Part shown: positions 27,001-30,000 of the stretch, piece after piece
How the letters are laid out: each line of letters begins with the position of its first letter
Numbering within the stretch: position 1 is the stretch's first letter
Virus record (IMG/VR): IMGVR_UViG_2511231131_000010
Source of the DNA: a virus
Taxonomy: Duplodnaviria; Heunggongvirae; Uroviricota; Caudoviricetes
DNA: 46,425 bases
Strand: one strand, 5' to 3'
Position numbers: made by a program

Positions 27001-30000
27001 CGAACCACCACGACAGCATGGTACCAGCAGGATCCCCGCGTTATTCGGGATATACGGGAGCAGTTTTTTGGCAATATGTAAACCCTGACCGACACAGCCG
27101 TACTGCCCTTTGCTCAGGTCAGCCCTCGGATGATTCAGCGTACTCATATCCTGCACATCATGCAGACAGTGGTCAGCCGGAATAATATCGTTATATCTGC
27201 AGGCAGCCCCGCCCGGCGTCACTGTACTGCGGCGCGCCAGCTGTTTAATGCGCGGATCCGGAGCATCGTATGAATCCGGCAGCGGAAGCCCTTCACCGTA
27301 AGCCATGGCATTGGACTGCCCGGCCAGTACGATGACGTAGTACCAATCCGGCTCAGATGAAGGGCCGACCTGTGGCTCTCCTTCAATAGCCACCGCCTGC
27401 ATCAGTGTGTACGGCGTAATGGCAACCGGTCCGCCGTATGGCTGCCAGCCCTCTTTCAGTTTGTGTGTCAGCTTTTCCGCAAGGTCTGACGGCGACGCCG
27501 CCCTGACAACATCATAGTGTTTAAATGCCATGAATCCTCCCGGCCGGGATAATATTGTGAGTAAAATGAGGAGCGGGCTGAAGTCCGGAAGTTACAGGAC
27601 AATGGCAGAAGAGAGACAACAGCCCGCAATACGAAAAAGGCCGCGCTATTGCGCAGAGTGATTACTGTCGGATATTATTCGCCAGCTGAAATATTACTTC
27701 ACGTTTTGTTGTTTATTCCTTGCCGCCCGCGTCTCCCTGCGCGGGCTTTTTTTGTCCATAAGAAAGCCCCTCCGGAGAGGGGCTGGAGAGTGGCGCTATG
27801 TGCCATTGCATGGTGCCGGGTGCCTCCCGGTGAATTCAGTACCAGCACCTGAATCCACGATTATCCCATATACCTACTCGCTGATTGCCCCTCCGCACAG
27901 GGGGATTCACCATGCCAGTTTCTTTTAACAAACTCCCCGCAAAACAGACAACTGTCAACCGTCTGAATTGTGAGACATTTAAAAAAAAGGCCCGCAAAAG
28001 CGAGCCAGGGAAAATAAGTGTGGCGCGTTGTACTGGATTCGAACCAGTGACCGATTGCTTAGAAGGCAATTGCTCTGTCCGGCTGAGCTAACAACGCAGG
28101 ATACAGATAATGGACCGCCTTCGGGGACCCGAACTCCGCGCAACCAGCTTCGAAGGCTGGCGCTCTTTCCTGATGAGATAATGGCGGTATGTGATGGTGG
28201 CCCTTGCTGGATTTGAACCAGCGACCTGGCGATTATGAGTCGCTCGCTCTCACCACTGAGCTAAAGGGCCGCGCGCAGAATAATAACGTTACGGAATTAA
28301 TACTGCAATCTCATCCGTTTCAAACGATTAAATCCTGAACTTCCCTGACTGTCTGCTCAAAACGTCCGGTCTCCAGCTCAACACCAATCGCACGACGCCC
28401 CAGTGCCATCGCCGCTTTTACCGTTGAACCCGACCCCATGAAAAAATCCGCAACCAGATCACCAGGACGACTACTTGCGCTGATTATCTGCTGCAGCATT
28501 TCTGCCGGTTTTTCGCACGGATGTTTCCCTGGATAGTACTGCACCGGTTTATACGTCCACACATCGGTGTACGGCACCTGCACCGTCACACCGAAATACC
28601 GCCGCAAATTTTTATATTCACTCAGCAGTTCCATATACTGCCGGTTCAGCTCACTGTATGTGCTGACCAGCTGGTGGTGTGGCTTTTCCAGTTCCCCGCG
28701 CTGATGTTTCTCTTCTGCCACCCGGGCAAACAACGCCTGCAATTTGTTGTAATCACCCTCGTTCGGTAACTGCCACTGACTGGTACCAAACCAGTGCGAA
28801 GCCATGTTTTTCTTTCCGGTGGCTTCCGCTATCTGTTTTGACGTTATTCCCAGTGATTTACGCGCATCACGAAAGTAAGAAATCAGCGGGGCCATGACGT
28901 GCTGTTTTAGCTCGCGCCCCTGTGCCACATAGCCATCATCTTTCGGGCGATACGGTCCCTGATAATGTTCTGCAAACAGAATGCGCTCTGTTGCCGGAAA
29001 ATACGCCCGCAGACTTTCCTTATTGCACCCGTTCCAGCGTCCGGACGGCTTCGCCCAGATAATGTGGTTCAGCACATTAAAGCGCTCACGCATCATGATT
29101 TCGGTGTCAGATGCCAGGCGATGACCACAGAACAGGTAAAGACTTCCGGCAGGCTTCAGTACCCGCCAGAACTGCGCCAGACACTGGTCCAGCCATTTCA
29201 GGTAATCATCGTCGCCCTCCCACTGGTTATCCCAGCCCTCGGGCTTCACTTTAAAGTATGGCGGGTCTGTGACTATCAGATCGACAGAGTTTTCCGGTAA
29301 GGTCTGGATAAATTCCAGGCAATCAGCGTTGATTAACTCACAACTGGATATTTTTACAGTATTAATCATAGATCAATAAGCACTTCTCTGATAGGCTCAT
29401 ACCGCTTTTGCGCAAAGCAGATGGGCCTGAGGTTTGCTTGTGACCCCAACGCATGAGCAGATGGCTGGCAGGTGCCGCTAACACCCACCAGCCGCCCATT
29501 ACCACAAATTAAAAAACCTTCACTGAGGAAGGCGTCTGTAACAACCGAACTGATAATCTGCCAGACCCGCCATAACAAGCTGAGTCAGTATTAACTGGCA
29601 GCGTTCGCGTGAAAGGTAAGTATTCTGCGCAATTTCCCCGACGGTCGCCGGTTCGGTGACGCTTAATTCATTAAACACCACTCTGGCGGTTTCGGTCATA
29701 TCCTGCTGTTTTAGCATGCCTTTTTCCCTTTTCCGGTTAACGTGACATACCAATACCTCTTGTCGAAAAAGCCAGCAAGCTGAAAGACCGGCATTCGCAA
29801 CCACCAGCGCATTTAACGTCCTGTACCGCTTTTCGGGCACAAAAAAACCCGCATAAAGCGGGTTCTTTCAGGTGTCCATGTCTGCTATTCGCCTCGCGGT
29901 ATAGCTTTGCGAAGCGTAGCTGGATTGAAACAGTTTATGCGTAAAAAATCAAGACATTTTTTGAGCAAACGATTCTCGCATAGGGATGTATAGCGCATAT

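Follow-up and report, generated by a model that had tools for sequence, protein, structure and literature searches.

A probable convergent sRNA module between the tRNA cluster and nanS-p of an stx-negative relative of Shiga toxin phages

The interval between the tRNA cluster and nanS-p in the window (the whole analysed stretch of 46,425 nucleotides from a Caudoviricetes record) most probably represents a regulatory-RNA module of the standard "moron-site" kind, in a lambdoid prophage without toxin cargo, a reading to which we assign a probability of about 85%. In Tree et al. 2014 (PMC4104026), the module contained in this 489-bp interval (27532-28020) appears as a "convergent sRNA pair", such pairs being reported there 3' of pR' at the moron site of Sp3, 4, 5, 9, 10, 11, 15 and 17. 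The prophage itself is a mosaic related to Stx phages but devoid of stx, with the same configuration as Sakai Sp4.

Read in the phage direction (minus strand), the module would comprise four elements: an intrinsic terminator closing the ileZ-argN-argO cluster; an Hfq-type sRNA of ~220 nt with a terminator of its own, from the STnc100 family (represented by EcOnc05 in Sp4 and, behind stx2, by EcOnc27 in Sp5); a convergent sRNA of the EcOnc08/21/42 type on the opposite strand, which would stop at the facing terminator, run antisense to the nanS-p leader and stand where the anti-sRNAs AsxR and AgvB stand in other prophages; and the nanS-p leader itself. The stx promoter-stxA-stxB cassette of Stx phages lies between the first and second of these elements, and the window has no insertion there. 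Following established lambdoid biology, the late operon of a lysogen would be expected to halt at tR' and both sRNAs to be made from their own promoters, and upon induction the Q-modified RNA polymerase would ignore the terminators of the tRNAs and sRNAs and go on to transcribe nanS-p and the lysis genes. Expression of the two sRNAs in the source strain and their association with Hfq are predicted by analogy with the 97%-identical Sp4 copy.

Late-region layout and the position of the stx cassette

The minus strand carries, in order, a Q-like gene, a methylase, tRNA-Ile(CAU)/Arg/Arg, the 489-bp interval, nanS-p, a holin and a lysozyme. The Stx-phage late-region order proposed in a preliminary description of this DNA (Q, methylase, three tRNAs, nanS-p, lysis genes) was borne out by both gene calls and alignment, and comparison with AP012536, LC567838 and Sakai Sp5 gave the shared order Q, (methylase), ileZ-argN-argO, (stx), nanS-p, holin, endolysin and Rz. 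The Q-like late antiterminator gene (29949-30503, minus strand) is of the DUF1133 family (Pfam DUF1133, 341 bits; Phage_antitermQ, 28 bits), and its product corresponds to PHROG 753, "anti-termination protein Q-like" (E = 8e-78); the segment that holds this gene, 30878-29853, had no counterpart in the Stx phages compared. Approximately 90 nt downstream of the gene, a strong tR'-like intrinsic terminator was read from the sequence (29841-29863, minus strand; ACCCGC-TTTAT-GCGGGT, then T7), and homology to Stx2 phages begins within it, at 29852. The pR' promoter would be located between 29948 and 29864. The DNA methyltransferase gene (28320-29369, minus strand; Pfam N6_N4_Mtase, E = 1.5e-44) shares ~89% nucleotide identity with the methylase gene that precedes stx2 in AP012536 and LC567838.

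On the other side of the interval, nanS-p (25681-27531, minus strand) encodes a sialate O-acetylesterase of 616 aa with the Pfam domains DUF1737 (E = 1.2e-15), SASA (1e-12) and DUF6645 (4.5e-18), which was assigned to PHROG 143 with 1160 bits; the gene is 94.7% identical at the nucleotide level to nanS-p (annotated yjhS) of the Stx1a phage LC567819. A P21-type holin gene (25233-25027) and a lysozyme gene (24339-23806) lie further along the same strand. The prophage may be integrated at mlrA/yehV, outside the window, as suggested by its 99.9%-identical integrase end.

The tRNA cluster ileZ(CAU)-argN(UCG)-argO(UCU) occupies 28021-28270 on the minus strand and was identified by ARAGORN together with Rfam tRNA matches. 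ARAGORN placed a tRNA with anticodon CAT (tRNA-Ile/ileZ in public records) at 28270-28195, a tRNA-Arg (TCG) at 28187-28111 and a tRNA-Arg (TCT) at 28097-28021, all on the minus strand, and the same cluster is annotated as ileZ/argN/argO in Stx2 phages, Sakai Sp4 and Sakai Sp5. It is followed by an intrinsic terminator found in a terminator scan (27981-28006, minus strand; GGCTCGC-TTTT-GCGGGCC, then T8), which is also kept upstream of stx2A in Stx2 phages, where no further shared element precedes the stx cassette.

The absence of an stxA or stxB ORF noted previously was confirmed across the whole 46-kb window, where searches with the Stx1A/B and Stx2A/B proteins (tblastn) and with both cassettes (blastn) returned chance-level matches only; lacking stxAB, the window is not that of an Stx-converting lambdoid phage. 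The preliminary description placed stxAB of Shiga-toxin-converting lambdoid phages between the tRNAs and nanS-p, and in the Stx2 phages AP012536, LC567838 and Sakai Sp5 the genes lie exactly between the third tRNA and nanS-p. The alignment to Stx phages that had been proposed for finding the exact junctions was run, and the junction was mapped in three Stx2 phages (Sakai Sp5, Stx2_95 and Stx2a_1447), with the result that the stx2 cassette corresponds to a point junction at window 27980-27977. The left blastn HSP stops at window 27980 (positions 4553, 5423 and 4057 of loci L005, L003 and L008, respectively), the right one begins at window 27977 (positions 5886, 6756 and 5390), and the 1,332 bp of Stx2-phage sequence between the HSPs are made up of the stx2 promoter, stx2A, stx2B and 41 nt. 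The point delimited by these HSP ends (27977-27980) is the real "empty site". The preliminary description had instead taken 490 bp for a vacant stx slot; this does not hold, since, the ~40-bp tRNA terminator excepted, the whole of it recurs behind stxB in Stx phages, both Stx1 and Stx2 phages having there the DNA that lies downstream of the junction.

The cargo of this slot differs among phages (stx2, stx1, a toxin-antitoxin-like pair plus TciA, or nothing), and the cargo boundaries fit homologous recombination between conserved flanks. Site-specific capture of cargo at the conserved "CTCACAATTCAG" boundary was also considered and was rejected, as the cargo of PPyecE_EH1910 ends ~45 bp further in and the phi296 junction has 28 additional bp.

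The probable convergent sRNA pair

The interval had been described as 490 bp of non-coding DNA with two convergent hairpins. It is indeed devoid of protein genes and both hairpins exist, but its length is 489 bp and two sRNA genes lie inside it. In the terminator scan, the plus-strand stem (27725-27746) is followed by T7 and the minus-strand stem (27784-27765) by TTCTTAT; these hairpins are the terminators of the two convergent sRNAs. Over the 3.3-kb region scanned there were 10 terminator-like sites, compared with 3.8 +/- 2.0 in shuffles.

The sense sRNA gene (27754-27978, minus strand) is a member of the STnc100 / EcOnc05 / EcOnc27 (PasD-related) family. The Rfam model RF02076 (STnc100) was matched over its full length (1-206) at 27944-27754, scoring 137.7 bits (gathering threshold, 47; E = 2.3e-30); the terminator stem is at 27784-27765. 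The sRNA was placed on the minus strand because the EcOnc05 northern probe, with 1 mismatch, matches 27852-27886 of the plus strand. Its 5' end is probably near 27978, judging from the northern size of the 97%-identical Sp4 copy, EcOnc05, an RNA of ~222 nt that was found by Hfq-CRAC and northern blot (PMC4104026). The structure is kept across 9 copies, with an RNAalifold consensus of 38 pairs, 6 of which show compensatory changes, and it ends in an intrinsic terminator; single-sequence folding gave a weak score (z = -2.05). On the minus strand, a consensus scan revealed no sigma-70 site ahead of the sense sRNA gene, and the manual -10 candidates (TAAATG) near the left edge of the module are weak. 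In all eight other loci examined, an STnc100-family sRNA either follows stxB at a distance of 75-80 nt or immediately precedes nanS-p (L009 was counted among them on colinearity at 96.9% identity), and AsxR or AgvB is convergent to it in Sp5, Stx1_14040 and PPyecE_EH1910.

The second sRNA, of the EcOnc08/21/42 type, was placed on the plus strand (27560-27755) because it is the minus strand (27645-27679) that the 35-nt EcOnc08/21/42 probe matches, in 35/35 positions with 0 mismatches. Its terminator (27725-27753, including the T7 tract) faces that of STnc100. The 5' end is uncertain: it could be 27560, as given by a promoter-like site (~194 nt), or ~27483 if the RNA is 271 nt long. The consensus scan yielded one plus-strand promoter-like candidate for this RNA (ATGCCA-17-GATAAT, 27525-27553), and Sp4 EcOnc08/21, also found by Hfq-CRAC and northern blot, is ~271 nt (PMC4104026). 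The Hfq peaks of the Sp4 homologue, put in window coordinates, reach ~27587. Single-sequence folding of the antisense RNA gave a weak score (z = -0.47).

The antisense RNA fills the slot and the alignment columns of AsxR in Sp5 and of AgvB in loci L006 and L007, between cargo and nanS-p, and shares with AgvB, AsxR and EcOnc03 this position convergent to an STnc100-type sRNA. However, its length departs from the 51-60 nt of those RNAs, the probe-matched Sp4 homologue EcOnc08/21 being ~271 nt, and the similarity to AgvB/AsxR in two alignments is partial and confined to the terminator region. The AgvB and AsxR models (RF02702, RF02703), which represent a conserved 3' region of ~42 nt, both match L006, L007 and L008 but gave no match at E <= 5 in 27400-28400; the function of AgvB/AsxR is therefore not transferable to this RNA. 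A permissive Rfam scan of the plus strand of 27400-28400 returned only sub-threshold, terminator-level noise (e.g., OmrA-B and anti-hemB), and thus the RNA is not assignable to a curated family.

The antisense RNA overlaps the nanS-p leader, in which the terminator scan found a conserved hairpin plus CCTTTTTCG (27641-27656, minus strand); in two alignments, CCTTTTTCG is (nearly) invariant across stx-positive and stx-negative copies. A role as a repressor of nanS-p may be considered because of this complementarity to the 5' leader, which, for an RNA of ~271 nt, would take in the start codon of nanS-p and its ribosome-binding site as well. We regard it as a tentative possibility, with the odds against it, that the antisense RNA is a cis-antisense repressor silencing nanS-p in lysogens, or that it adds a third class to the prophage sponge RNAs, GUUUUGUUGUUUAUUCC being its GU-rich region; if this were true, a prophage without stx would still reprogram host regulation.

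Alternative readings of the interval and of the missing stx genes

The interval might also be regarded as an inert spacer without an RNA product, its hairpins merely being terminators that separate the tRNAs from nanS-p. Terminator-like hairpins are in fact its most obvious features, and the promoters of the proposed sRNAs are not clear-cut; nevertheless, the covariance-model match to full-length STnc100 (E = 2e-30) has conserved and compensated helices, blocks distant from the terminators, such as GCATGGTGAATCCCCCTG and CACCGGGAGGCACCCGGCACCATG, are invariant across divergent phages, and both strands of the 97%-identical Sp4 copy gave Hfq-bound transcripts (PMC4104026), which together make an inert spacer very unlikely. 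More improbable again is a small protein encoded in the interval. Several ORFs of 43-77 aa overlap it, and PGAP annotated a partial "hypothetical protein" (a pseudo-CDS on the plus strand) at window 27800-27925 in strain 12A. However, this fragment, which is flagged as incomplete, runs opposite to the STnc100 match; no Pfam match at E <= 1 was obtained for any of the six small ORFs in the interval; and conservation tracks RNA helices rather than codons. The convergent sRNA module remains the preferred reading of the interval.

Regarding the missing toxin genes, the preliminary description had offered an stx-negative relative or an stx-deleted derivative of an Stx-type phage. The former is correct, because the late synteny, the position of stxAB in Stx2 phages and the identities of the flanks agree: Stx2 phages share 89-91% identity with the window on the left flank (29852-27980), and an Stx1a phage shares 94.7% on the right flank (27656-24988). 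The latter would require that an Stx-phage ancestor lost exactly the stx promoter-stxAB cassette and that the flanks were rejoined. Such a loss would be in keeping with the homology of the flanks to those of Stx phages, with the coincidence of the junction with both cassette boundaries, and with the early/regulatory half, which is covered to 51-62% at ~88-89% identity by the Stx1a-, Stx2a- and Stx2d-converting LC5678xx phages. However, the window holds no stx fragment or scar, and the identical junction occurs in ~1,000 complete genomes from many backgrounds as well as in Sakai Sp4, the contiguous stx-less arrangement being present in 1,003 of 5,426 complete E. coli genomes. In none of these 5,426 genomes was stx1B or stx2B contiguous with the module allele of the window; the best contiguous stxB-module matches in complete genomes were 88.9-89.2% identical overall and ~83% in the module part, and the closest flanks of stx-positive phages were only 89-93% (left) and 70-87% (right) identical. 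The module without stx was found at >=95% identity in ~2,000 records. Thus, we consider a deletion unlikely, and the sequence comparisons offered nothing in support of a recent one; an ancient loss, as against a slot that never gained stx, retains a small probability in a mosaic genome. An assembly artefact, for which nothing was found in favour, would be scarcely credible as the cause of the stx absence, given that the 1,101-bp locus is 100% identical to the finished chromosome NZ_CP077479.1 and 96-98% identical, with the same contiguity, to hundreds more finished genomes.

Relation to known phages and prophages

An stx-less slot with the sRNA pair is already known, and the pair is common to toxin-carrying and toxin-free phages; the locus presents no new biology. 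Stx-type late regions without stx are common, the exact arrangement being found in approximately 1 in 5 complete E. coli genomes, and the DNA between the tRNAs and nanS-p is better annotated as two sRNA genes than as an empty site or a pseudo-ORF. The junction at 27980-27977 provides clean coordinates for PCR assays or read mapping that distinguish occupied from unoccupied stx slots. These observations fit the view that stx is one of several swappable cargos, flanked by a tRNA terminator and an sRNA module that are both conserved.

At the locus, strain O111:H2 12A is 100% identical to the window, falling to 85-89% in the lysis genes (whole-window blast). The stx-negative phages Nil3 (AM051322), vB_EcoP_phi296/315/367, TL-2011a and PPwrbA_EH2201 likewise have the tRNAs followed directly by the STnc100 module, without stx. 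Nil3 is 95.5-96% identical over the locus, whereas in phi296 the tRNA terminator and the module are 28 bp further apart than in the window, and all that is left of the methylase is a remnant. The backbones of these stx-negative phages differ from that of the window, being of the podovirus-type Traversvirus, in contrast to the lambda-type head and tail genes of the window; a literature search on phages Nil3 and Lahn2 found nothing relevant. The best overall match to the early/regulatory half of the window (62% coverage, 88% identity) is PPyecE_EH1910 (LC567835), an stx-negative O145:H28 prophage that shares the frame of methylase, STnc100 and nanS-p but in which a toxin-antitoxin-like pair plus TciA/TerB-like genes replace the tRNAs and the antisense sRNA is AgvB. 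The PasD sRNAs of EPEC, which were described as located immediately before the phage sialic-acid esterase gene and as structural relatives of STnc100 (bioRxiv 10.64898/2026.05.13.724894; Zhu, Shabalina and Storz 2026), were likened to the window sRNA by description rather than by PasD sequence, and the window copy scores as STnc100 proper.

The Stx2a phage Sakai Sp5 shares with the window the tRNA cluster and its terminator, STnc100 (EcOnc27) in sense and a convergent antisense sRNA, and its 486 bp from the stx2B stop to the nanS-p start are colinear with the 489 bp of the window. It differs in that the 1,332 bp of the stx2 cassette separate its tRNA terminator from its sRNA module, in that its antisense sRNA is the 53-nt AsxR rather than the window allele, and in an STnc100 copy that is ~70-74% identical. 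Sakai Sp4 of O157:H7 is closer, being 96.9% identical to window 28286-27209 over 1,079 bp with 1 gap. It is likewise stx-negative, with ileZ1-argN1-argO1, a 489-bp spacer, the identical junction between tRNA terminator and sRNA, and a nanS-p (ECs_1088) of 616 aa, and both of its northern probes (EcOnc05 and EcOnc08/21/42) match the window, with 1 and 0 mismatches, respectively. Upstream of the tRNAs, however, the place of the window's methylase is taken in Sp4 by an AraC-family regulator gene, and the remainder of Sp4 is a different mosaic from the window prophage.

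Late-region organization and a predicted sRNA pair upstream of nanS-p

The late genes of the phage all lie on the minus strand, and the order stated in the preliminary description (Q-like gene, methylase, three tRNAs, nanS-p, holin, lysozyme) was recovered with ARAGORN, Pfam and PHROG. Upstream of the tRNAs are genes for a Q-like protein (29949-30503; DUF1133, PHROG 'anti-termination protein Q-like') and a DNA methyltransferase (28320-29369; Pfam N6_N4_Mtase). ARAGORN placed a tRNA(CAT) at 28270-28195, labelled tRNA-Ile (ileZ) where identical genes are publicly annotated, followed by tRNA-Arg(TCG) (28187-28111) and tRNA-Arg(TCT) (28097-28021). 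An interval of 489 bp (27532-28020), whose small ORFs had no Pfam match, separates these from nanS-p (27531-25681; DUF1737, SASA and DUF6645), and P21-type holin and lysozyme genes lie downstream. The claimed absence of stx genes also stood, as tblastn and blastn found no stx sequence throughout the window.

The description of this interval as non-coding DNA is inaccurate, as a predicted sRNA is present there: a full-length match to Rfam STnc100 (RF02076) on the minus strand (27944-27754; 137.7 bits, gathering score 47, E = 2e-30). The two hairpins noted earlier are both real. The minus-strand stem (27784-27765, then TTCTTAT) is the terminator in which the STnc100 match ends, and the terminator-like plus-strand stem (27725-27746, then T7) ends a putative convergent antisense RNA. 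Further terminator-like hairpins on the minus strand were found directly after tRNA-Arg (28006-27989, then T8) and at 27656-27641. STnc100 members lay directly upstream of nanS-p in all seven other loci scanned with Rfam (Nil3, phi296, PPyecE_EH1910, Stx1_14040, Stx2_95, Stx2a_1447 and Sakai Sp5), starting 75-80 nt after stxB in the Stx phages among them, and the RNAalifold consensus of nine copies contained 38 pairs, six with compensatory changes. The published probe for EcOnc05 maps to the plus strand (27852-27886, 1 mismatch), which puts its RNA on the minus strand, as the counterpart of the STnc100 match; a 222-nt RNA ending near 27756 would start near 27978, the left edge of the sRNA-pair module. 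In strain 12A (E. coli O111:H2), the segment equivalent to 27800-27925 (+) (L004 20476-20601; NZ_CP077479.1) is annotated by PGAP as an incomplete 'hypothetical protein' pseudogene; it is antisense to the sRNA, lacks family support and is probably a spurious call.

The probe for EcOnc08/21/42 matches the minus strand (27645-27679) with no mismatch, placing its RNA on the plus strand. This antisense allele is shared by the window with Stx2_95 and phi296 and ends at the plus-strand terminator, and neither the AsxR nor the AgvB covariance model matched it in the Rfam scan. Because the putative antisense RNA overlaps the nanS-p leader, cis-antisense control of nanS-p is possible.

The insertion point of stx

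The preliminary description took the whole interval, as 490 bp, for a vacant stx slot. A vacant site does exist, but it is much narrower. In blastn comparisons with three Stx2 phages (AP012536 Stx2a_1447, LC567838 Stx2_95 and Sakai Sp5), the left match (28448-27980, 90-91% identity) ended 40-41 nt past argO and the right match began at 27977, 41-42 nt beyond the stop codon of stx2B, which narrows the vacant site to the junction 27980-27977. Between the two match ends the Stx2 phages hold 1,332 bp comprising the stx2 promoter, stx2A and stx2B. The window junction reads ...GGGCC-T8/AAATGTCTCACAATTCAG..., and those of the Stx2 phages read ...GGGCC-T6/ATATCTGCGCC...stx2AB...AACAAGTGT/AATCTGTGTCACAATTCAG....

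The interval itself has a colinear counterpart in Sp5, where 486 bp separate the stx2B stop from the nanS-p start, and the same right-hand module lies behind stx1B in the Stx1a phage LC567819. In stx-negative phi296 (L002, 4410-4440, against window 27981-27978), 28 extra bases (ATTACAGGAAAGACACTGGACAGTGAAATG) lie between the tRNA terminator and the module, so the junction differs among stx-less phages; part of these bases resembles the pre-module sequence of Stx1 phages (CAGTGAAAAT...AAATGTTAAAT). The cargo of this slot in relatives is stx2, stx1, a toxin-antitoxin-like pair plus TciA, or none.

Ancestry and mosaic structure of the prophage

The prophage had been proposed to be either an stx-negative relative or an stx-deleted derivative of an Stx phage. 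The first possibility is favoured by how common the stx-less arrangement is: counting genomes in which at least 80% of the 1,101 bp is covered in one place with no large insertion, it was found in 1,003 of the 5,426 complete E. coli genomes searched, many at 97-98% identity, including UPEC, ESBL isolates and non-Stx prophages of O104:H4, and the same slot is present in the deposited stx-negative phages Nil3, phi296/315/367, TL-2011a and PPwrbA. An ancient loss of stx from an ancestor of the prophage is formally conceivable; against deletion, no scar was found at the window locus, and no stx gene was found joined to this module allele. Chimeric queries, in which window 27977-27600 was preceded by the final 200 nt of the stx2B or the stx1B region, gave best contiguous matches of 89.2% and 88.9% overall (approximately 83% in the module part), and thus no sequenced complete genome carries stx on this allele, while the module alone matched roughly 2,000 records at 95% identity or more. 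The most economical explanation is that the prophage is an stx-negative relative.

The prophage is a mosaic by sequence comparison, with approximately 89% identity to Stx2 phages at 29852-27980, 94.7% to an Stx1a phage at 27656-24988, a RusA/Q segment not shared with the Stx phages compared, and lambda/phage 21-like head and tail genes. The Stx2-phage homology starts at 29852, within a strong tR'-like candidate terminator (29841-29863, minus strand) approximately 90 nt after the Q-like gene, which suggests that the Q/pR' cassette upstream may have been exchanged as a unit. Strain 12A, whose prophage adjoins mlrA (yehV), has the 1,101-bp locus at 100% identity. As a whole, the window is a mosaic relative distinct from that prophage (NZ_CP077479.1): identity is 99.9% at 39350-46425 (integrase end) and 98.4% at 25665-37848 but only 85-89% in the lysis genes, and the immunity region (37849-39349) has no match there.

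Proposed transcription and comparison with known sRNA pairs

The sequence elements, family membership, conservation and identity to RNAs detected experimentally in Sakai are established by these comparisons, and lambdoid biology suggests how the region would be expressed. In the lysogen, pR' transcripts would halt at tR' (candidate 29863-29841) and both sRNAs would be transcribed independently; after induction, Q-modified polymerase would continue past the terminators of the tRNAs and sRNAs to transcribe nanS-p and the lysis genes.

Other RNA candidates lie elsewhere on the minus strand. Related phages carry PasA/PasC sRNAs between nanS-p and the holin gene (Zhu et al. 2026), and by this analogy the corresponding segment (25234-25680) is a candidate for an sRNA of approximately 280 nt; it has a promoter-like site (25602-25574), a strong terminator with an 11-bp stem followed by a T run (25315-25289) and no Rfam match. 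In the early region, an Rfam match to C4 antisense RNA (36777-36864; RF01695, 75 bits) lies beside one to isrK (36886-36962; RF01394, 62 bits); the pair, also present in phi296 (L002, 187-369), has the look of a c4 antisense module of P1/P7 type that would control immunity or an antirepressor.

The arrangement has been described before. STnc100 has been reported approximately 75 nt downstream of stx2 (PMC12370729), equated with EcOnc27/sRNA103 (PMC12711010) and related to the PasD sRNAs, which lie upstream of the phage's esterase gene (bioRxiv 10.64898/2026.05.13.724894). Tree et al. 2014 (PMC4104026) described convergent sRNA genes at the lambdoid moron site downstream of pR', with EcOnc27 and AsxR 3' of stx2B in Sp5 and the same organization in Sp3, 4, 9, 10, 11, 15 and 17. 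Hfq-CRAC and northern blots in Sp4 detected EcOnc05 at ~222 nt, from the plus strand in that prophage, and EcOnc08/21 at ~271 nt, from the other strand. Opposite STnc100, on the other strand, Sp5 carries AsxR, and Stx1_14040 and PPyecE_EH1910 carry AgvB, whereas the allele found there in the window differs from both. Stx-negative Sp4, with ileZ1-argN1-argO1, a 489-bp spacer and a 616-aa nanS-p homologue, is 96.9% identical to the window over 1,079 bp, with one gap.
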